Positions 606 through 45,161 of a DNA stretch of 64,000 nt are shown here, piece by piece. Origin of the DNA: Candidatus Iainarchaeum sp. GTDB lineage: Archaea; Iainarchaeota; Iainarchaeia; Iainarchaeales; UBA10191. The stretch's first letter is position 1. Each line of letters starts with the position of its first letter. Below the pieces are notes generated by a model. It was not told the origin of the DNA. It saw only the letters and a program-made list of their open reading frames with translations, and did no database searches. The stretch spans positions 64,001 through 128,000 of the forward strand of contig JAUSFL010000036.1 of assembly GCA_030649735.1 (NCBI GenBank), in the 5' to 3' direction. The position numbers were made by a program, and so were the translations under genes.

Positions 606-827
606 ATTCAGGTCTTGAAAGTAAGATAAAGAATTAACGTTCAAAAAAGTTTTAAAACTAGAGAAAAGCAAGAAAAAGGCGTCAATGCCAGGGTAAATCA
701 ACTTTTGCCATTGTAATCAAATTTACTTGGCTTGTTTTTTTAAACTTAAGCGCAAAACCTGCTTGAAAAATGCAAGGCTTTAAAATAGCTAAAGCATTAT
801 TTTAATCAAAGAACTAAAGTGGTCTCT

Positions 828-3800
828 ATGGCTGAAGAAGAAGCCCGAATTAAAAAAACAAGCGAACAGTCTGAAGACTTGTTTGAAGAACTAGAGCATG
901 ATGATGAAGAAAGCGGCAGCCCTGCCAATGAAGAGCCTGAAGGCAGGGACAATGAAGACTTGGTTCCTTTAAAGAAGGAAAAAAAGCACAAGAAAGCAAA
1001 AAAGCACCACGAGCAGGAAAGCAAGGACGAAGACACTGAAATTTCCGGCGCAAAATTAAGGACGCTTGAAGAAGACACAAACCTGCCTGTTTCTGAAAGC
1101 CAGAAAAAAACCCTCTCTGACGAAGACACTGAAATTGTAAAGCCAAAAAAGCAAAAGTGGAAAGAAGCCGAAGTTTCAGGATTCAGGGAAGACAAGGAAG
1201 AAACAGAAATTTACAGGCCAATCAGGGGAGAAAAAAAATTCACAATCCACGTTGAAGGAGACCTGGAGCAAAAGGAAGAAACTGACGTTTACACTCCCAA
1301 GAAAAAAACCGAGGGAAAATGGGCAAAGGAAAAAGAAATTGAAGTAAAGGAAGAAGGCGAACTGGAAAAAGAGGAAGGAATAAAGGAAGAAGAAGAGGAA
1401 ATTGAAGAGCGCGAAGAAGACAGGATTGACGACTTTGAAGTGGAAGATGACGATTTTGACATTGACTTGGAAGGCGAAGGCCTTTCCACTGAAGGAATCC
1501 GCAAAAGAATCCTGGAAAAGGCGGAAAAAGAAAGCGTTCGCGTTTCAGAAACCAGCATTCCATTAAAATTCCTTGAAGACGGAGAAAACGTCCTGATTGG
1601 ACGGAAAAAAAGCGTTCACGCAAAGTACGGAATGCAAGGCGCATTATATGTTGGAAAAGTCGGGGAAGACGAGCAAAACAGCAAAAGCGTTTTCTTGGAT
1701 TCCTTAAACCCTCACGTGGTTTTTGTCTGCGGAGCAAGAGGCAGTGGAAAATGCCTGGCTGGAGATTCTCTAATAAGTCTTGCTGACGGAAGCGAAAAAC
1801 CAATCAAAGAGTTAGAAAATGATTTTGAAATCTTGGCATTAAATGATGAATTAAAAGTCCAAAACTCAAAGAAGGAAGGATTCTTCAAAAGGACTGTAGA
1901 ACGCATTCTGGAAGTAAGGCTTGCCAGTGGAAAAAGCATCAAACTCACTCCGGAGCATCCTTTGCTAACAATTAATGGATGGAAAGAGGCAGAAAGCATT
2001 GGTGTTGGGGGAAGGATTGCGACCCCAAGGCGCATTGGCTTCTTTGGAAATCTAAAAGCAAGAGAATGCGATGTTAAATTGCTGGCGTACTTGCTTGCAG
2101 AAGGGCATTTGGGAAACCAGTTTGTGCTTTTCTCAAACTTTGATGAAAGAATAGTTTCAGAATTCAATGAATGTATTGGAGAGTTTGACCAAAACTTGAG
2201 GATTGAACAACATTCAAAACCAGGATGCTTTAGGATTGCTCAAAAAAGAAAAGAGACTGACATTTCCAAAATCAAAAGAAACCCAAAAGGGCAATTCACC
2301 CAAGAAAGCAGAATCAAGTGCAGCAAAAGCTCGCTGATGCTCTGGCTTGAAAGTTTGGGAATTTACGGAAAGCTTTCTGCAGAAAAATTCATTCCAGAAA
2401 ACATTTTCAAGCTTGAGAAAGAACAGCTTTCAGTATTCTTGAACAGGCTTTTCAGCTGTGATGGAAGCATTTACAGAATCAACAAGAAAAAAAACAATTG
2501 GGCAATATGCTATGCTTCAAGCTCTGAAAAAATGATTTACCAAGTGCAGTCATTGCTGCTGAAGTTTGGAATAATATCAAGCGTCAGGGAAAAGAGAATT
2601 TTATGCAACAAGAAAGAATTCAAGTCTTTCGAACTGGTTGTTTATTCGGAAAGCGTGCTGGAATTCATTAAAGAAATAGGGTTTTTTGGAAAAAAAGAAG
2701 ACAAAGAAAAAACCGCGCTTTTTGAAATGTCAGGAATTCAAAGAAACCCAAACAATGACACAATCCCAATGGAAGTTTGGGCAAAGCTTGATGGAATAAA
2801 CTGGATGAAGACTGGAAGGGAATTTGGCTACAAAAACTGCAAGTCATTCCATAATGTCAAGAATTATGCCCCTTCAAGGGAAAAACTATTGAAAATCGCG
2901 CAAATCAACAATCTTAAAGGAATTCAACTGCTTGCAGAAAGCGACATTTATTGGGATGAAATAAAAGAAGTCAAAGAATTAAACGGAAGTTTTGAAGTTT
3001 TCGACATTAGCATTCCAGAATTGCATAATTTTGTAGCAAACAATATTATCGTGCACAATTCTTACGTGCTTGGAGTCATTGCTGAAGAGCTCGCGAAAAA
3101 AAACAACAATGTAGGAATTGTAGTCATTGACCCAATCGGCGTGTTTTGGAGCATGCGATTCCCAAACCGCGAAAAAAAAGAAATTGACGCAATGGGCGAA
3201 TGGAATTTAATGCCTGAAGGATTGAACAACCTAAAAGTGTTCATTCCTGAAGGAATCGCGAACGAAGTCCCAAAAAACACTTATGACGCAACTTTCAGCA
3301 TCCAGCCTTCATTGCTTACAAGCGAAGACTGGTGCCTTACTTTTGGAATAGACCGGTTTTCGCCAACAGGCCTATTGCTTGAAAAGGCAGTGAAGAGAGT
3401 GGAAGCCGGCTACAAGACTGCAGCTAGCGAAACCCAAAAGGCATTAATTGTAAAGCCCAAGGGAAGAAAGTACGGAATTGACGACCTTGTAAACTGCCTT
3501 GAAAGAGACGCTGAAATCAACAGCCGCGACAAAGGATTCAAGCAAGACTCTGTAAGGGCATTGGTTTCAAGGTTTGAGGCAGCAAAAAACTGGGGAGTAT
3601 TCTCAAACAATGGAACTCCGTTGGCAGAAATTTCACGAGAAGGCCAATTGACAGTCCTTGACACCAGCTTCTTGGAAGATAACGTAACCGCGCTTGTAAT
3701 TGGAATCCTGGCAAGAAGGCTCTTGGCTGCAAGAAAAATCATAACTAGAAAAGAGGCTTCAGTAAAGTTTGACAAAAAAGACATGGACCAAATGCTCGAG

Positions 3801-5279
3801 CTTGAAGTTCCAGCAACATGGCTTTTCATTGATGAAGCCCACACTTTAATTCCTTCAGGAAATGTAAGGACTCCTGCAACCGCAGGCCTTATTGAGTATG
3901 TAAAGCAGGGAAGAAGACCGGGGCTTTCACTCGTGTTTGCGACACAGCAGCCTTCAGCAATTGACTCTAAAGTGCTAAGCCAATTGGACGTGATAATGAC
4001 CCACAAGCTGGTTTTTGACGATGACATCAAGGCAGTCTACAAAAGAACTCCAACAATAATTCCTGCAAAGTACAGGAAAGCAATGTTCATCAAAACTCTT
4101 CCAGTGGGCGTGGCATTGACTGGAGACAGGGCTGAAGAAACATCCCGCGCGTTTGTAATGCGCATTAGGCCCAGAATGAGCCAGCATGAAGGCAGGGACG
4201 CAGTCACAATGGAAAACACTAAAGAAATCAGCCCTAAAGAAATTCAAGAACTGGCATTAAGCATGGCGAGCTCCAAACTAAAGGCCGAAGGAATAATGCC
4301 TTTGGAAAAACTCCGCGCGCTCATTGACACTTTAAACACAAAATACAAGGCAAAAATCAATACAGAAGACATCTTGAAAGCCTTGGAAAAATCAGGCTGC
4401 GTTGTCGACCTTGCAGCAGGAACAATTGCAATCAAAGGATTCAAGCCGCAAGAAAAAGAAGTTGAAGAGTTTTCAAAGCAGGAAAGCATTGCAAACGCAA
4501 TTGAAGAAAGCGCTGAAGTTGCCGAAAAGGAAGAAAGAAAATCACTGCATGAAACAAGCGAAGAACTGACAGAGCTATTGGCAATTCCGGCAACTCTCAC
4601 AGAACAGCAGGCCCGCAAAGTATTTGACAACGCGAGAAAAAAGAAAACATTCGGGCTGTTCGGAAGCGAAGAACGCATTACCTCAATGCAATTAAAGTAC
4701 AGGACAGTGTGGAAAGTGGTTTTCAACGAGTACAACCTGCGGAAGGAATTCGCCAAGAACGAATGCTACATTGACTCAGTAACTGGAGAGTTTTTGCACT
4801 TTAACGGGAAAGAATTCATTGAAAGCAAGGGCGCAAAATTCCTTTACGATTTAAGCGATGAAGAAATCTCAGTCGCAAAAGAAATTGCGGTGAAAAAAAG
4901 AATGCCTGAAGGAAAAGAGCAAAAATTCAGGAAAATTGCTGAAAAGCTTGCGGAAAAAGGGCTGATTAAAATCAAGGAAGACAAGGGAATTGTAAAATAC
5001 GCCATTGACGAGCAAGCATTCGACCTTCCCCCATCGCCAGACCATGAACTGCTTTCAAGCATTGGAAAAATGCGCTTAATTACAGTCGAGGCCTTGGGAA
5101 AAGAAAAGGAAAACATTGGGCGCGAGAGCGCAATGAAGCTTGTCCAGAGATTATGGCCGACCATTATAGTGAAGAAAATCGAGGAAGTCGAAAGGCCATT
5201 GTTTGAAGCCACTTTCGAGTCAGCGAACGGCGAAAGCAGACGGGTAAAAATTGACGGTTTGAGCGGAAAAAGCGTTTAA
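828..5279 (+). CDS. HerA/DUF87-family P-loop ATPase with intein, acidic N-terminal extension and long C-terminal extension
   Basis: Walker A GARGSGK/S split by the intein; VVIDPIG; Walker B LFIDEAH; GRRPGLSLVFATQQPSAID. ATG at 828 (the track starts at GTG 819). Confidence 0.85.
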   Translation: MAEEEARIKKTSEQSEDLFEELEHDDEESGSPANEEPEGRDNEDLVPLKKEKKHKKAKKHHEQESKDEDTEISGAKLRTLEEDTNLPVSESQKKTLSDEDTEIVKPKKQKWKEAEVSGFREDKEETEIYRPIRGEKKFTIHVEGDLEQKEETDVYTPKKKTEGKWAKEKEIEVKEEGELEKEEGIKEEEEEIEEREEDRIDDFEVEDDDFDIDLEGEGLSTEGIRKRILEKAEKESVRVSETSIPLKFLEDGENVLIGRKKSVHAKYGMQGALYVGKVGEDEQNSKSVFLDSLNPHVVFVCGARGSGKCLAGDSLISLADGSEKPIKELENDFEILALNDELKVQNSKKEGFFKRTVERILEVRLASGKSIKLTPEHPLLTINGWKEAESIGVGGRIATPRRIGFFGNLKARECDVKLLAYLLAEGHLGNQFVLFSNFDERIVSEFNECIGEFDQNLRIEQHSKPGCFRIAQKRKETDISKIKRNPKGQFTQESRIKCSKSSLMLWLESLGIYGKLSAEKFIPENIFKLEKEQLSVFLNRLFSCDGSIYRINKKKNNWAICYASSSEKMIYQVQSLLLKFGIISSVREKRILCNKKEFKSFELVVYSESVLEFIKEIGFFGKKEDKEKTALFEMSGIQRNPNNDTIPMEVWAKLDGINWMKTGREFGYKNCKSFHNVKNYAPSREKLLKIAQINNLKGIQLLAESDIYWDEIKEVKELNGSFEVFDISIPELHNFVANNIIVHNSYVLGVIAEELAKKNNNVGIVVIDPIGVFWSMRFPNREKKEIDAMGEWNLMPEGLNNLKVFIPEGIANEVPKNTYDATFSIQPSLLTSEDWCLTFGIDRFSPTGLLLEKAVKRVEAGYKTAASETQKALIVKPKGRKYGIDDLVNCLERDAEINSRDKGFKQDSVRALVSRFEAAKNWGVFSNNGTPLAEISREGQLTVLDTSFLEDNVTALVIGILARRLLAARKIITRKEASVKFDKKDMDQMLELEVPATWLFIDEAHTLIPSGNVRTPATAGLIEYVKQGRRPGLSLVFATQQPSAIDSKVLSQLDVIMTHKLVFDDDIKAVYKRTPTIIPAKYRKAMFIKTLPVGVALTGDRAEETSRAFVMRIRPRMSQHEGRDAVTMENTKEISPKEIQELALSMASSKLKAEGIMPLEKLRALIDTLNTKYKAKINTEDILKALEKSGCVVDLAAGTIAIKGFKPQEKEVEEFSKQESIANAIEESAEVAEKEERKSLHETSEELTELLAIPATLTEQQARKVFDNARKKKTFGLFGSEERITSMQLKYRTVWKVVFNEYNLRKEFAKNECYIDSVTGEFLHFNGKEFIESKGAKFLYDLSDEEISVAKEIAVKKRMPEGKEQKFRKIAEKLAEKGLIKIKEDKGIVKYAIDEQAFDLPPSPDHELLSSIGKMRLITVEALGKEKENIGRESAMKLVQRLWPTIIVKKIEEVERPLFEATFESANGESRRVKIDGLSGKSV
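1752..3059 (+). mobile_element. Intein with LAGLIDADG homing endonuclease (436 aa)
   Basis: Starts CLAGDS, block B LTPEHPLL, DOD motifs LLAYLLAEGH and FLNRLFSCDGS, ends HNFVANNIIVHN followed by extein Ser. Confidence 0.95.
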
Positions 5280-38671: not shown

Positions 38672-41575
38672 ATGATAAAGCTCAAGAAATTAGAGTTCAA
38701 AAACTTCAAGTCTTTCAAGAAAGCCAGCATTCCAATGGCTGAAGGATTCACTGCAATTGCGGGCCCCAATGGATCGGGAAAATCAAATATTTTAGACGGC
38801 TTGTTGTTTGTTTTGGGAATTACAAGCATGAAAATGCTCCGCGCCGACAAGCTTACAGAACTAGTCAATCACGAGGCAGAAGACAGCACAGCGCGCGTTT
38901 CGCTGATTTTGAAAGACAAGGAGCAAGAGTTTGAAATCAGCAGAAGCATTGACAGGCAGGGAAAAAGCGTTTGCAGAATGAACGAAAAGCGCTGCGGGCT
39001 CAATGAAATTGCAAGCTTTTTGAACGAGGTCGGAATAAAGCCGACAGGCTACAACATTGTCGTCCAAGGGGACATTACCAGAATCATTCAAATGAGCCCT
39101 AAGGAAAGGCGCGGAATAATTGACGAAGCCGCAGGCATTAGGGAGTTTGACGAAAAGCGCGAGGAAGCGCTTAAAGAACTGGACAAGGTTGAAATCAAAA
39201 TCAAGGAAGTCCGCATAGTGCTTAATGAAAGAGAGCAATTCTTGCGCGAGCTCGCGAACGAGCGCGAGGCAGCGAACAAGTACCTGCAATTGACGCGCGA
39301 GCTAAAGCAAAGCAAGGCAACGCTTTTCAAGCTCGAAATTGGCGAGTTGAATGCTGAAAACGCAAAGTTTGAAATGAAAGAAAGCAAGATTGCCGAAGAA
39401 TTAAAGGCGTTCACAGACCAAAGGAATGAAGTTTCGCAAAGAATTGCCGAGCTTTCCGCAAAAATCGAAGAATTGAACAATTTCCTCATTTCCTCTGGAG
39501 AAAAAAACTTTGAAGAATTTGGAAGGGTTTTTGAAGAGAAAAAATCAGAGCTCCGCATTAGCGAGGAAAGAATCAGCGAAGGAAAAAAAGGCCTTGAAGA
39601 ATTCACAAAAAGAGAAGAAAGCATTCACGGAGCATTAAAAGAGCTTGAGGAAAGGAAAAAACAGCTTGCCGAAGGCCTAAAGGCAGCCGCAAAAGAATTG
39701 AAAGCGCTTGAAGAAAAATTAAAGCAAGAGGCAAGCATCAAGGAAGGCAACATTAATGAATTGCAGAACGCGTTGCAAAAGGCGGCAAAAGCAATGGAAG
39801 AAAAGCGGGCTGAACTCCGGATTGCTGAAGAATTCGCAAAGCAAGACGCACGGGCAATCACTGAAAGAAAGAATCGCTCTGCAATCCTGAAAAGCCAATT
39901 GGAAAGCATTGAAGAAAGGAAAAGCCAGGTTTCTGGAAAATTCAAGGCAGAAAACGCAAAAGTCAAAGAGCTTCAAGGAAAAGTCTCAAAATTTGAAAGC
40001 GAAAAAGTGACTGAAAACTTGAATGACAGCATTAAAAAACACGGGATTCTGGAAGGAGAATTAAAGGGCTTAAAGGATTCCTTGAAGGAATTGAAAAAGG
40101 CGGCTGCAAAATGCCCTGTTTGCGAAGCAAGCCTTAAGGAATCAAGAAAAAAAGAGCTTGCTGAAAATAAGGAAAAAGAAATCGCAAAGCTTGAATCCAA
40201 GGCAAGAACTCTGGAAGAAAAAACCAGAGAGTTTGAGGAAAAGTTTTCCGAATTAAGCCAAGCCAAAGCCGAATTCAACATAATTAATTCTGGCTTTCAA
40301 AAAACAGAGTCTGAATTAAAGCACTTTGAAGAAAGAGCAGCTGAACTTTCAAAAGAATCAAAAGAAAACGAGAAACTGCTTTCAGAAATCGAGCTAAAAA
40401 ATTCCAATGCAATCGAGCAAATCCCAAAACTGAAGCAACAGCTTGGAGAACTTGAAAGCGAGCATTCCAAAAGGCTTGAAAAGCACAACAGCATTCAAGA
40501 AATTGAAAGAGAATTCCAAAAACAAAGCAATGAAAGGCTGCGCCTGGAATTCGAAGAAAAAAGCAGTGCTGAAAGAATTGCAGAATTGGAAAAGGAAACT
40601 CCATCAATTGAAAAATCAAGCATTGAAATTGCGGAGAGAATAAAGCTTGAAAGCGAAAAAGCCAGGCATTTGGGCAAGGAATTGCAGGAACTCGAAATCC
40701 AGCAGAAAAAAAGCCTTGAGAAAAACAAGCGCTGGCTTGACGAAAAAGAGCTATTGAAGGGAAAAAACGAAGAGGCTTTTGCAAAAAAGCAAAAAAGCGA
40801 AGAAATCATCAGAAAGCAGGAAATGCAATTAAACGAGCTTGCCTTGGAAAAAAGCAAGAATTCAGTTCGCTTGACAGACTTGCAGGAAGAGCAAAAGAAT
40901 TTCATTGAAGAAAAAATCATTGAAAACATGAACTTGGATGCTTTGAGAAGGAGAATTCCCCAAATAGACAAGGAATTGAATTCTCTTGGCGCAATAAACA
41001 TGAAGGCCTTGGAAAGCTTTGAGAATTTGGGAAGGGAAGTAGGGGAAGTGCGCGCAAAAGCCAACAAGCTAGAGGAAGAAAAAATTTCAGTAATGGACTT
41101 GATTCAAAAAATCGAGGTCAAAAGGCTTGAAGTGTTTGCAAACTGCTTCAACAAAGTCAATGAAAACTTCAACAAACTGTACTTTGACTTCTTTGAAGGC
41201 AAAGGCGCTTTGCGCCTGACTGACGAGAAAAGCCCTTTCGAGGCAGGACTGATCATAGAAGTTGCCCACAAAAACAACAAGACATTAAGCATTGACCTGA
41301 TGAGCGGCGGAGAAAGGACTTTGGCCGCGCTTGCCTTCTTGTTTGCAATCCAATTCTATGAGCCTTCGCCATTTTACGTTTTTGACGAGGCAGACGCCGC
41401 ACTCGATGACGCCAATTCCATAAAATTTGCGAACATGATCAAGGAAATTTCAAAGCAAAGCCAATTCATTGCAATAACCCACAATGACGTTGTCATAAAG
41501 CAAGCCGACCAAATAATCGGAGTTGCAACCAACAAGCAAAAAAGCAGTTCAGTGATAGGGCTGAAAGTCCAGTGA
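38672..41575 (+). CDS. smc: SMC-family ATPase (967 aa) with central CPVC zinc-hook motif and no recognisable hinge
   Basis: NFKSF, GPNGSGKSN, VVQGD, LGAINMKA, MSGGE, PFYVFDEADAALD, QFIAITH; CPVC at residue 481. Confidence 0.88.
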   Translation: MIKLKKLEFKNFKSFKKASIPMAEGFTAIAGPNGSGKSNILDGLLFVLGITSMKMLRADKLTELVNHEAEDSTARVSLILKDKEQEFEISRSIDRQGKSVCRMNEKRCGLNEIASFLNEVGIKPTGYNIVVQGDITRIIQMSPKERRGIIDEAAGIREFDEKREEALKELDKVEIKIKEVRIVLNEREQFLRELANEREAANKYLQLTRELKQSKATLFKLEIGELNAENAKFEMKESKIAEELKAFTDQRNEVSQRIAELSAKIEELNNFLISSGEKNFEEFGRVFEEKKSELRISEERISEGKKGLEEFTKREESIHGALKELEERKKQLAEGLKAAAKELKALEEKLKQEASIKEGNINELQNALQKAAKAMEEKRAELRIAEEFAKQDARAITERKNRSAILKSQLESIEERKSQVSGKFKAENAKVKELQGKVSKFESEKVTENLNDSIKKHGILEGELKGLKDSLKELKKAAAKCPVCEASLKESRKKELAENKEKEIAKLESKARTLEEKTREFEEKFSELSQAKAEFNIINSGFQKTESELKHFEERAAELSKESKENEKLLSEIELKNSNAIEQIPKLKQQLGELESEHSKRLEKHNSIQEIEREFQKQSNERLRLEFEEKSSAERIAELEKETPSIEKSSIEIAERIKLESEKARHLGKELQELEIQQKKSLEKNKRWLDEKELLKGKNEEAFAKKQKSEEIIRKQEMQLNELALEKSKNSVRLTDLQEEQKNFIEEKIIENMNLDALRRRIPQIDKELNSLGAINMKALESFENLGREVGEVRAKANKLEEEKISVMDLIQKIEVKRLEVFANCFNKVNENFNKLYFDFFEGKGALRLTDEKSPFEAGLIIEVAHKNNKTLSIDLMSGGERTLAALAFLFAIQFYEPSPFYVFDEADAALDDANSIKFANMIKEISKQSQFIAITHNDVVIKQADQIIGVATNKQKSSSVIGLKVQ

Positions 41576-41584
41576 GGAAAAAGA

Positions 41585-42682
41585 ATGCACGCTAAAAAAC
41601 TGGTTTGCTTCAAGTGCGGGAAAGAATTTCCAGCAAATTCGAGAATTTTTTGGTGCTCTAAATGCGGCTATTCATTAGATGTTGAATACCATTATAGTGA
41701 AATCAAGAACTTGGTGGAAAGAGAAGAGTTTTTGAGGGCGCCAGTAAAGCACTGGAAGTACTGGATGTTCTATCCAGTGCAGGATTTGCAGAAAGTAGTT
41801 TCAATGCATGAGGGCGGAACAGCGCTAATTAAATCACGGCATTTCAAGGATTACTGGTTCAAGTTTGAAGGCGTAAACCCGACAGGCAGTTTCAAGGACC
41901 GCGGTTCTACAATCGAAATAACCAAGGCAATTGAAAATTGCGAGAAAGAAGTCTTGTGCGCTAGCACTGGAAACATGGGCGCTTCAATTGCAGCTTATTC
42001 TGCACGCGCTGGAATTAAGGCAAGCATTTTCGTGCCAGAATTCGCAAGCAGTGAAAAAATCCGCCAGATTAAGGCTTATGGAGCAAGCGTTACAAAAGTA
42101 AAAGGAACTTACGACCACGCGCTGGAATTGACAAAAAAAATTTTTGAAAAAAAAGGCACTTACTTGACTGGAGATTATTATTACAGGGCTGAAGGCCAAA
42201 AAAGCGTTGGATTTGAGATAATAGACCAGTTAAACTGGGAAAGTCCGGAAAACATCGTGTGCCCGGTAGGCAATGGCACTTTATTGTTTGCTGTCTTCAA
42301 GGCATGCAAGGAATTTGCGAAAGTCGGCTTATTGAAAAGCATGCCCCGCATTTACGGAGTGCAGGCGACAGGCTGCAACCCAATCAAAAAAGCCAAGGTT
42401 TTGCCAGTCAAAAACCCGAAAACTGAAGCAAGCGCCATTGACTGCGGAAACCCAGTTTACGGCCTTGAAGTCTTGAAAGCAATCAAGGAATCAAAAGGAC
42501 AGATTGCCGCGGTTTCTGACAAGGAAATGGCAAAAAGCATGAAAAGCCTTGCAAGCGAAGGCATTTTTGCAGAATTAAGCGGAGCAGCAAGCTTGGCCGG
42601 AGCATTAAAGCTTGGCTTGAAGGGAAAAACAGCGTGCATTGTTTCAGGCCACGGGTTGAAAGAAAGCAAAAGCTACTACTAG
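41585..42682 (+). CDS. thrC: Threonine synthase
   Basis: N-terminal CxxC pairs, EGGT, NPTGSFKDRG, ASTGN, PVGNG. Confidence 0.9.
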   Translation: MHAKKLVCFKCGKEFPANSRIFWCSKCGYSLDVEYHYSEIKNLVEREEFLRAPVKHWKYWMFYPVQDLQKVVSMHEGGTALIKSRHFKDYWFKFEGVNPTGSFKDRGSTIEITKAIENCEKEVLCASTGNMGASIAAYSARAGIKASIFVPEFASSEKIRQIKAYGASVTKVKGTYDHALELTKKIFEKKGTYLTGDYYYRAEGQKSVGFEIIDQLNWESPENIVCPVGNGTLLFAVFKACKEFAKVGLLKSMPRIYGVQATGCNPIKKAKVLPVKNPKTEASAIDCGNPVYGLEVLKAIKESKGQIAAVSDKEMAKSMKSLASEGIFAELSGAASLAGALKLGLKGKTACIVSGHGLKESKSYY

Positions 42683-45105
42683 CGTTTTTTCTTTTTTTTC
42701 TGCAAAGGCCTTCTGGCCTGCACTTTTGAAGGCTTTTTTATCTGAGAGGCAATGTCATTCAATGCAGTGCTTGAAAAGCTTTTATCCCTTGCACTTGCAG
42801 TTTTGGCTGCGACAATTGGCTTTGGCTTTCCCGAATCAGTCAAGGAATCATTCAAGCGCTTTATTTCAGAGCCAATCTGCCTTAAGGCTTCCTGATAGTC
42901 TTCTTCAAGGATTTTTCCGGCGGCATAATCCCTCTTCAGCACGCGGATTGAATGCTCTAGGCCAGAGCTTTTTGAATGCAAGTAATCCAATTCCACAGTG
43001 TTGTGGGATTTTGACTTTGCGGAAGTTTCTATTTTTGAAATGCTTTCAGAAAGCTTTTTTGAATGCTCCAGGAACTCTTGCGCGCTGATTTTTCCAACAG
43101 CGTAATCCTGCGCTAGCCTTTTCTGCTGTTTTGAAAGCTCGCCAAACTCGTGAACTTCAAGCACGCCTTTAGAGCGCTTTCTTACAATCAAAATAATCAA
43201 TACAACAGATGCAAGAAGCCCAACGCCTAAAACAAAAATTATCAAAAACAAGTAACGCGTGTTGTCTTGAGTCACTGTGACATTCACTCCCAAAGGCTGC
43301 TTTCTTGGAATGTTGACTAATTCAGAGTCTGGAATGATTGAATAATGCGCGAAAGCCAATTTTGCGGCGTTAAGGTTGCTTTCAGCCAAGAACGCGAGCG
43401 AAACCCCGCTTTTGAGCATTTCAGCGGCAGTGCCTGCCTGCCCATTCTGCTGGTAGAATTTGGCGCCATTCAAGTAATAGCGCGCGTGATCCAAGTACAA
43501 GTTTGCCCAAACAGGCTTGAAATTCAAGTCCTTCAATTGGGAATCAAGGGCGGCAATCTTGCTGACTAGAATGCTTTCCAAGGCATTGGCGTCCTTTCCA
43601 TTAACCGCTGATTCTGCATCAAGCAATGACTGGGCTGAAACAGCGTCAAAATACCCGCCTAAATTCCATTTGAAGGCCTGCTCTATTTTTGCAGAATTCA
43701 CTCTTCGGGTAATGTCTTCCTTTTCTGAAGCGCCGTTAATGCTTAAGCCATTCTCTGCCTTGATTATTGCAGCGCTTAATTCTGGCTTTAAAAAATCATT
43801 CAAGGACGCCCATTTTTCAGAATTGCTTCCAAAATCGTAAAAGTTCACTGCAATGTCAAACCATGCCTGGGCGAATTCAAAATCCTGCACTTTTTTCACG
43901 GCGGTCGTAGAGTCTGTCTGCTGGACTCCATTAATCACAATGATTGTTTCAGGCTGCGCTAGCTGTTCCAGGTTAATGCGTGCCCAAGTCAAGCGCTGCT
44001 GTGCCGCGGCATACCATTCAAAATCATTGGTTGGAATTCCCTTGTCAATTTCTTCCTCTAATGCCTTGACTTTTTCCTGCAGGTTTTGCACTTTCACTTT
44101 CAATACTGTTGAATTGTCCGAAAGAATTGACGGGTTTTCAGCAATGTCTTTTATTGTCAAAGCGTTCACGCGCGCAAGGAAAGTGTAATTTGCCGAAGAG
44201 TACAAGTAATTGGCGTCATTCAGTGTTTGCGCTTCCTTCAATGCGTCTTCAGTGTCCCCAAGCTGTGAAAGCAGGCTGTTGATTACTGAAGTGTCATTGA
44301 TTAAAGTCGTTGACAATGAATTCCTTGCGGAATTGATCAAGTCTTTTGTTTCAGAAAGGAATTTTGAATTCTGCCTCTGCAAAGGCGCAAGCGAGCTTGC
44401 CTGGCCTATTGGCTTTGGCACAAAAACCAATTGGGGCTGCTGCAGTGTTTTGTTGACGTCAATTTTTGAAATGTCAGAAAAAGCAAGCTTTAACGCAGTG
44501 TCCAATTTGTCGACTTCAATGACTTTCATCCCCCACTCTTTCAGCGCATAATCAGGCAATGAAATGTTTTGGACTCCGGAAGGCAATTTTACAGTCTGCT
44601 TTGCCTCTCCTTTCGGAATCATGAAAAGCTTTATCCCAATTTTTGCGGCCTCTTGGCTTTTTTCAAAAACCCCGCCAACAGGCCCTATTGTGCCGTCTTC
44701 GGAAATAGTTCCGGTCATTCCAACCTGCGCCGGGATTGCCTTGTTTTGAAGCGAGGCAACAGTCAATAACGCCATTGCACTGCCTGCAGAAGGGCCTTCA
44801 ACAACTGACGCCTGGCTTTTAATTTCAAACAAGTAGTCAAAATTGTCAACTTCTGGAGAATAGTTCTTTGCCAGCCTTACAGCAACCAATTCTGCATTCT
44901 GCGTTGTGGTTCCAACCAATGGAACAACAGAACTCCACACTTTTCCAGACCCGTTAGGCAGGATTTTCAAGGTCAAGTCCGCAGAAAGGCCTTTGCCTTC
45001 AGAAGTGACGGCAAAAATCTTCATTGAAGCCTGCGAAGTCACTGCAAGAACCGCGGTTGCGGAAAAAAGGACAAAAAGCAAAACAAGCAATTGCCGAAAA
45101 TTCAT
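42679..45105 (-). CDS. Secreted, membrane-anchored Lon-like (S16) serine protease
   Basis: Signal peptide, EGPSAG, TGTISEDGTIGPVGGVFEK, C-terminal TM helix and basic tail. Confidence 0.85.
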   Translation of the reverse strand: MNFRQLLVLLFVLFSATAVLAVTSQASMKIFAVTSEGKGLSADLTLKILPNGSGKVWSSVVPLVGTTTQNAELVAVRLAKNYSPEVDNFDYLFEIKSQASVVEGPSAGSAMALLTVASLQNKAIPAQVGMTGTISEDGTIGPVGGVFEKSQEAAKIGIKLFMIPKGEAKQTVKLPSGVQNISLPDYALKEWGMKVIEVDKLDTALKLAFSDISKIDVNKTLQQPQLVFVPKPIGQASSLAPLQRQNSKFLSETKDLINSARNSLSTTLINDTSVINSLLSQLGDTEDALKEAQTLNDANYLYSSANYTFLARVNALTIKDIAENPSILSDNSTVLKVKVQNLQEKVKALEEEIDKGIPTNDFEWYAAAQQRLTWARINLEQLAQPETIIVINGVQQTDSTTAVKKVQDFEFAQAWFDIAVNFYDFGSNSEKWASLNDFLKPELSAAIIKAENGLSINGASEKEDITRRVNSAKIEQAFKWNLGGYFDAVSAQSLLDAESAVNGKDANALESILVSKIAALDSQLKDLNFKPVWANLYLDHARYYLNGAKFYQQNGQAGTAAEMLKSGVSLAFLAESNLNAAKLAFAHYSIIPDSELVNIPRKQPLGVNVTVTQDNTRYLFLIIFVLGVGLLASVVLIILIVRKRSKGVLEVHEFGELSKQQKRLAQDYAVGKISAQEFLEHSKKLSESISKIETSAKSKSHNTVELDYLHSKSSGLEHSIRVLKRDYAAGKILEEDYQEALRQIGSEIKRLNDSLTDSGKPKPIVAAKTASARDKSFSSTALNDIASQIKKPSKVQARRPLQKKKKKR

Positions 45106-45161
45106 TCTAAAATTAGTGAAAAAAGTGTTTAAATTCCTTTGCAATTTGAAAGGCCGTGCTT

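Follow-up and report, generated by a model that had tools for sequence, protein, structure and literature searches.

A hinge-less archaeal Smc with a CPxC apical loop, a putative zinc hook, in Candidatus Iainarchaeum and its order

We analysed a stretch of 64,000 nucleotides from the DPANN archaeon Candidatus Iainarchaeum sp. (GenBank assembly GCA_030649735.1, contig JAUSFL010000036.1, positions 64,001 to 128,000 of the forward strand; hereafter the window), which carries on its forward strand an smc gene whose product has Smc-type ATPase heads, no recognisable hinge, and a CPxC motif at its predicted apex. We consider it probable that this product is the chromosomal Smc orthologue of its order, in which a CPxC apical loop has replaced the hinge, and that it acts in a condensin of the ScpAB type. 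This assignment rests on the Smc descent of the heads, the absence of a hinge, the invariant CPxC at the predicted apex, the retention of ScpA and ScpB, and conservation of the architecture across the lineage.

The smc gene of the window

The smc open reading frame (ORF) begins with ATG, ends with a stop codon at 41573-41575, and encodes 967 residues, the length given in a preliminary description made from the DNA letters. A longer, TTG-started frame from 38549 is not supported: the homologues begin at the same position, with MIKLKK or M.KL..L.LKNFKSF, and since M1 is invariant among them the ATG at 38672 is supported as the start. Every one of the Smc-type head motifs listed in the preliminary description was located in the sequence; in addition to those in Table 1, these are NFKSF (residues 11-15), VVQGD (130-134) and LGAINMKA (772-779). 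All ATPase motifs are invariant across 33 aligned homologues (including G31, N33, G36, K37 and Q132). The same description had placed KCPVCEASL almost exactly at the midpoint, and C481 and C484 do lie at 0.50 of the length.

Table 1. Coordinates of the smc gene and its parts (positions in the window; residues of the 967-residue product).
Feature	Position	Strand	Evidence
smc, hinge-less hook-bearing Smc, 967 codons and stop	38672..41575	+	ORF, Pfam, NCBIfam, PDB search
ABC ATPase head, N-terminal half, residues 1-170	38672..39181	+	motifs, Pfam, alignment; predicted local distance difference test (pLDDT) 85-93
Walker A, G31-S38	38762-38785	+	sequence; Q-loop Q132 in same head half
Coiled-coil arm, ascending, residues 171-476 (predicted)	39182..40099	+	AlphaFold 2 (AF2) model; helix breaks 198-203, 353-364
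Apical loop, residues 477-489, with CPVC hook and L488 (putative)	40100..40138	+	sequence, Pfam, alignment, AF2
CPVC hook codons, residues 481-484	40112-40123	+	sequence
Coiled-coil arm, descending, residues 490-790 (predicted)	40139..41041	+	AF2; breaks 602-608, 745-754 opposite ascending-helix breaks
ABC ATPase head, C-terminal half, residues 791-967	41042..41572	+	motifs, PDB search, alignment; H-loop H937
Signature MSGGE, residues 877-881	41300-41314	+	sequence
Walker B/D-loop FYVFDEADAALD, residues 901-912	41372-41407	+	sequence

The source genome is a metagenome assembly of 51 contigs, and a decayed gene or an assembly artefact, for example a hinge deleted by a mis-join, would be one way of explaining a short Smc. 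We regard the probability of this as close to negligible. A contig assembled independently from run X1, which is possibly the source sample, carries the full gene with 0 differences. Two contigs from other studies run through the hook codons, one (X2) covering 38714-40174 with 89 differences in 1461 bases (~94% identity) and the other (X3) covering 38693-40308 with 145 differences in 1616 bases (~91% identity). A mis-assembly in the middle of the gene, the artefact of which the preliminary description had warned, is excluded because the contigs of these two studies bridge the hook codons; moreover, dozens of independent assemblies show the same architecture (within the order, 25 of the 37 genomes with an orthologue; among the best cluster representatives, 31 of 41; both described below). 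The reading frame is uninterrupted and every catalytic motif is preserved.

Descent of the heads and partners in the genome

A Pfam scan of the 967-residue protein matched SMC_N across residues 4-958 (7.4e-42) and gave no match to SMC_hinge (PF06470), in agreement with the earlier impression that no hinge is visible. The best NCBIfam models were Smc equivalogs (TIGR02169, 7.1e-162), in which residues 4-477 align with model positions 2-499 and residues 472-962 with positions 679-1177. Model positions ~500-678 are skipped in this alignment, and what is missing is therefore precisely the model's hinge block. The best Rad50 model reached 120.6 bits (cut-off 700), and the ASRP model NF045487, which has 593 positions against the 967 residues of the protein, reached 107.9 bits (cut-off 300), with its best stretch in the coiled coil. 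A sequence search of the PDB recovered Smc heads at up to 6.6e-87 (5xei; archaeal and bacterial Smc lead) and Rad50 heads at 1.4e-13, and Foldseek, run on an AF2 model, matched the Pyrococcus Smc heads 5xns and 4i99 with template modelling scores (by target) of 0.83 and 0.87.

Phylogeny of the heads pointed the same way. In head-only trees of 372 columns (a quick tree of 70 rows and a careful tree of 53 rows), the protein is nested among archaeal Smc and falls within the clade of its order, supported by a Shimodaira-Hasegawa-like approximate likelihood ratio test (SH-aLRT) of 87 in the quick tree and by 85/81 in the careful one. The quick trees join this clade, in a group with an SH-aLRT value of 99*, with the hinge-bearing Smc of a sister order and of Micrarchaeota-titled metagenome-assembled genomes (MAGs); in the careful tree the deeper grouping with sister-order Smc is weakly supported (32-56). 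The Rad50 of the same genome stands on a very long branch of ~10 changes per column. Membership of Rad50 was ruled out by the model scores, the PDB E-values and the head tree, and membership of ASRP (ClsN/Sph) by a score under the cut-off and by length. Taken together, sequence, fold and phylogeny demonstrate that the heads are those of archaeal Smc and belong neither to Rad50 nor to the described hook-bearing family. The preliminary description had left a choice between a chimera and a distinct SMC class; because no donor of the hook was found, the distinct class is the better fit and the chimera is not favoured.

The source assembly spans 1.28 Mb and is 92.7% complete. SMC_hinge had no match anywhere in it, the control search being positive in 10 reference genomes, and no second Smc-type gene was found in its 51 contigs. 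ScpA (241 residues) and ScpB (191 residues, 111.3 bits) are both encoded on contig C39, 730 bp apart with a pirin gene between them, and a Rad50-like gene separate from smc, on contig C50, encodes a protein of 781 residues that has a hook of its own. No protein of the genome scored over the ASRP cut-off. The neighbours of smc are unrelated to it (a membrane protein, a lipoprotein-like ORF with no Pfam match, a pyridoxal phosphate (PLP) enzyme and a Lon_C membrane protein), and no phosphoesterase (Mre11/SbcD), nuclease or defence gene adjoins it; the earlier remark that neither scpA nor mre11 is adjacent thus holds, the flanking genes being the lipoprotein-like ORF and the PLP enzyme.

The smc gene, then, does not stand beside scpA and scpB, and the hook-bearing SMC-like proteins described so far, Rad50 and ClsN/Sph, are repair or compartment factors (PMC9389158). 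Both points would suit a paralogue with a changed job in DNA repair or defence, comparable to Rad50, ASRP or Wadjet, instead of a chromosomal condensin. We judge such a paralogue very improbable, given that no other Smc-type gene was found in the genome, that the protein is nested in the archaeal Smc clade beside Smc of the sister order that do have a hinge, and that ScpA and ScpB are kept across the order; the separate Rad50-like gene and the lack of an ASRP over the cut-off and of an adjoining nuclease or defence gene also speak against it.

The apex and its distribution in the order

The middle of the protein had been described as coiled coil, and the AF2 model (33-sequence alignment; mean pLDDT 78.9, head confident) agrees, predicting one long helical hairpin in which a helix (156-476) leads into a loop (477-489) that contains CPVC, followed by a return helix (490-744). 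In the prediction, breaks at 198-203 and 353-364 lie opposite others at 602-608, 745-754 and 768-781, a pattern that fits the joint and the elbow-like discontinuities of Smc.

The residues of the predicted loop are conserved far beyond their surroundings. C481, P482 and C484 are invariant in the 33 homologues (28-76% identity), L488 is kept in 91% and L474 and K493 in 85-88%, against a mean top-residue frequency of 0.35 in the arms. The protein contains five cysteines; when five were placed at random in 200,000 trials, a CxxC fell within 3% of the midpoint 242 times (0.12%). With the Pfam profile Rad50_zn_hook, 18 of the 33 family members give a match at E<=0.01, and in two the score exceeds the cut-off (P0065 at 30.7 and P0008 at 29.4 bits), and SMC_hinge is absent from the 25 Pfam families listed for these 33 members. 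Furthermore, the Rad50 of the same genome has its hook, CPTCRQKL, at its own midpoint, with a CPxCxxxL spacing identical to that of the Smc hook. A local BLASTP comparison of the 87-residue apex with this Rad50 aligned hook on hook, weakly (25% identity, E 0.006, a single comparison); the alignment is compatible with a grafted hook and with one that arose de novo, and cannot separate the two. By inference, the Smc hook would bind zinc and mediate dimerisation.

We then consider how widely this architecture is shared. An exhaustive search of representatives gave 41 clusters (P0008-P0048) at 436-677 bits, mostly matched in one full-length stretch and mostly 772-1028 residues long; after P0048 the scores break to canonical Smc of 1100-1200 residues, matched in two stretches at <=420.6 bits. 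A central CPxC is present in 31 of the 41 cluster representatives, neither hook nor hinge in nine, and a hinge in one (P0034). Of 41 genomes from the window's order, 37 have an Smc orthologue, 38 have ScpB and 39 have ScpA. The hook is present in 25 of the 37 orthologues (one as CLVC), eight have neither hook nor hinge, one has a hinge (G010), and three are too fragmentary to be scored. The architecture therefore recurs in relatives and is a lineage trait of the order. Of 201 genomes sampled from the phylum, 182 belong to the order, and SMC_hinge was detected in 2 of these (G010, and G197 with a weak partial match); of the 19 from the other orders of the class, whose Smc has ~1140 residues, 17 gave a match. 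The loss of the hinge is therefore placed at or close to the base of the order.

Within the order's clade the hook-bearing and hook-less states are mixed, with at least five hook-label changes forced by starred branches of the quick tree, and repeated loss of the cysteines is therefore suggested. The history of the hinge is less simple. P0034, a metagenome protein of 1012 residues with an SMC_hinge match of 96.2 bits, is nested among the hingeless proteins of the order, and forcing all hingeless rows to be monophyletic gave a tree 13.4 log-likelihood units worse in an approximately unbiased (AU) test (p-AU 0.023, borderline). Two histories would account for this: repeated loss of the hinge, or its recovery in P0034 by recombination.

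The proteins that have neither hinge nor CxxC are the orthologues L031, L033, L130, L131, L132, L133, L135 and L136 and the cluster representatives P0014, P0025-27, P0031, P0037, P0039, P0042 and P0047. L132 and L133 (genomes G036 and G005) have 1084 residues and a long branch, with no Pfam hinge and no CxxC, and are long enough that they could hold an apex domain that the profiles do not recognise. The orthologues L027 (G019), L032 (G027) and L135 (G028), as well as P0029, carry an intein of ~500 residues inserted in the Walker A P-loop, after which alignment with the window's protein picks up again at residue 36-37 of the latter. P0029 has 1548 residues, and its intein is matched by the Pfam families Intein_splicing and LAGLIDADG_3.

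These hook-less proteins bear on whether the CPxC is a dimerising hook at all. The apex might be a plain hairpin tip, with dimerisation through the heads, the kleisin or contacts between arms, and with cysteines that serve a structural or redox purpose. In favour of this are the interspersion of hook-less, hinge-less orthologues with the forced label changes just given, the AF2 model of hook-less P0014, in which a bare helical turn is predicted at 459-462 with modest confidence, and a hinge-less SMC clade from ocean metagenomes that is described as having no CXXC (PMC12153180). We nevertheless consider a plain tip unlikely, as C, P and C are 100% conserved in 33 sequences whose arms otherwise agree at ~35%, the motif and its flanks fit the Rad50 hook profile in 18 of the 33, and the CPxCxxxL spacing is that of the Rad50 hook in the same genome.

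Several observations weigh against a hook-bearing Smc as the condensin of this order and are set out here together. The Smc equivalog scores are under their curated cut-offs (TIGR02169, 540.6 versus 729.4 bits; TIGR02168, 458 versus 567.35), a shortfall that corresponds to the absent hinge. On residues 460-508 of the window's protein Rad50_zn_hook reaches 18.1 bits and so stays under its cut-off of 24.3, and the Pfam score of ScpA in this genome is modest (40.5 bits). Since the genome is an assembly of 51 contigs, a hinge-bearing copy may conceivably have been missed. In addition, the hook-less L135 is sister to the hook-bearing L027 with support of 100/98, and the genomes of the eight orthologues without hook and hinge (8/37) still have ScpA and ScpB; a covalent-like link at the apex may therefore be non-essential, and the cysteines may serve otherwise.

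For a hook-bearing chromosomal Smc, which we still favour, the following mechanism would apply. In an ancestor of the order the globular hinge of ~180 residues would have been swapped for a 13-residue apical loop with CPxC. Each monomer would fold back on itself to form an arm of ~300 residues, and the tips of two monomers would be joined, in the manner of Rad50, through a single Zn2+ that four cysteines coordinate. At the opposite end the ATP-dependent heads, with the kleisin ScpA and ScpB as their bridge, would close the ring, and the complex would act as an Smc-ScpAB condensin (DNA entrapment, loop extrusion) that has no hinge. Binding of ScpA and the chromosomal function of the hook-bearing Smc are presumed.

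A second lineage and comparison with known systems

A second sample comprised 101 genomes from the phylum of a Woesearchaeota-titled MAG. Smc is present in 100 of them, nearly always as a two-part match with frames of ~1150-1200 residues. Two genomes of this phylum (G290 and G236) encode proteins matched in a single stretch, with open frames of 960 and 970 residues, a central CPIC or CPVC, SMC_N and no hinge, and their heads are nested in the hinge-bearing Smc of that phylum with support of 100/99. A single origin of all hook-bearing Smc was rejected in an AU test (105.9 log-likelihood units worse, p 5e-36), for which the group was named after inspection of the tree and which, being based on heads, leaves a transfer of the middle segment alone possible. 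The flanks of the hook also differ between the lineages, with CPxCK...H...I in the second and KCPVCE..L..K in the Iainarchaeal one. These results demonstrate a second lineage of hook-bearing Smc in another phylum, phylogenetically separate by its heads.

The arms of the hook-bearing proteins form two length classes ~90 residues apart. Among 30 distinct hook proteins the distance from Q-loop to cysteine is 254-264 residues in five and 328-360 in 25, and that from cysteine to signature is 316-317 in the same five and 382-408 in the same 25; in the window's protein the two distances are 352 and 397. The engineered Bacillus subtilis Smc(Zh) tolerates only certain arm lengths, which follow a bimodal pattern of ~91-residue period (Burmann et al. 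2017, PMC5344682), and the step of ~90 residues seen here matches the 91-residue period and bimodal pattern reported there for B. subtilis Smc and Smc(Zh).

Among the representatives there are also hinge-bearing Smc of only ~800-840 residues, a short-arm class that includes P0070, P0083, P0087, P0090 and others. L120, from the Paceibacterota-titled MAG G204 (Candidate Phyla Radiation), is an SMC-like protein of 779 residues on a very long branch of the head tree, and SMC_hinge was not found in the 0.4-Mb genome G204. The ESM Atlas gave leads to SMC_N clusters of ~950 residues in Nanobdellota and to SMC_N-only clusters of 736-930 residues in Spirochaetota and Actinomycetota.

The window's protein shares with prokaryotic and archaeal Smc of the Smc-ScpAB type its heads and ATPase motifs, ~300-residue arms interrupted at matching places, the presence of ScpA and ScpB in the genome, and its place within archaeal Smc; it differs in having a 13-residue CPxC loop for the hinge, in being ~200 residues shorter, and in scoring under the equivalog cut-off. 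With Rad50/SbcC it has in common a central CPxC and, at +4, a hydrophobic residue, placed midway along a predicted antiparallel coiled coil, and the Rad50_zn_hook profile matches members of the Smc family; unlike in Rad50/SbcC, however, the head is not of the Rad50 type, no Mre11 adjoins, and the genome has its own 781-residue Rad50-like protein. The ASRPs (ClsN/coalescin, Sph1/2) are likewise archaeal members of the SMC superfamily with a hook for a hinge and are already in print (PMC9389158), but form a separate and much shorter family. The hinge-less SMC clade of ocean metagenomes is bacterial (Actinobacteria-like); it has SMC heads and coiled coil without a hinge and resembles hook-less proteins such as P0014, whereas it is stated to be without CXXC (PMC12153180), which in the window's protein is present and in its family invariant.

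The closest likeness is to an engineered protein. B. subtilis Smc in which the hook of Pyrococcus furiosus Rad50 replaces the hinge is reported to support normal growth (PMC5344682), and the reciprocal swap, of the Rad50 hook for a MukB hinge, is also in print (PMC6969161). Smc(Zh) as described there and the protein reported here both combine Smc heads and arms with an apical CxxC hook, and the two arm classes ~90 residues apart in the natural proteins recall the bimodal arm-length dependence of Smc(Zh). The Iainarchaeal form differs in being natural, lineage-wide and ancient, with a distinct hook sequence that was not recently grafted from Rad50. It is a natural counterpart of a domain swap that elsewhere is the work of protein engineering. 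Smc of DPANN archaea has been filed under "canonical aSMC" with no hook mentioned (PMC8665677), and full-text literature searches, with subscription-only papers and supplements outside their scope, found no published description of a natural hook-bearing Smc. The second separate hook lineage, the two arm-length classes, and the relatives without hook and hinge are new here.

The hinge is regarded as a defining feature of SMC proteins and is credited with DNA binding and with a role as DNA gate. It has lately been credited with obstacle bypass as well (PMC12647877). An archaeal order whose only Smc has a 13-residue putative zinc hook, and in which some members apparently have no apex module, would be a natural experiment on which functions of the hinge are essential. 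The architecture also lends independent evolutionary backing to two conclusions of Burmann et al. 2017 (PMC5344682), namely that the kind of domain used for dimerisation matters little and that arm length is under a periodic constraint. More broadly, we put forward, tentatively and at somewhat under an even chance, that the apex of Smc-ScpAB is exchangeable and even dispensable: a hook would have replaced the hinge independently in at least two DPANN phyla and would later have been lost several times, with bare hairpins as the outcome and with arms quantised throughout in steps of ~90 residues, one coiled-coil superhelical turn. If this is true, the roles of the hinge in DNA binding, as a DNA gate and in obstacle bypass are not universal for complexes of the Smc-ScpAB type, and arm geometry is the conserved mechanical element. 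A bolder extension is that Smc and Rad50 hooks could pair across complexes in cells that have both. On the practical side, domain-based annotation pipelines will miscall hook-bearing Smc; the window's protein scores under the Smc equivalog cut-off and partially matches Rad50 and ASRP models.

Elsewhere in the window, two further proteins deserve a brief record. The predicted Lon_C membrane protein downstream of smc (42679-45144, minus strand) has 821 residues, and Pfam recognises in it nothing but the Lon_C proteolytic domain (residues 113-192), which is followed by a long coiled, low-complexity tail. At 819-5279 on the plus strand lies a HerA-like ATPase (DUF87) of 1486 residues, which is interrupted by an intein with a LAGLIDADG homing endonuclease recognised by Pfam.

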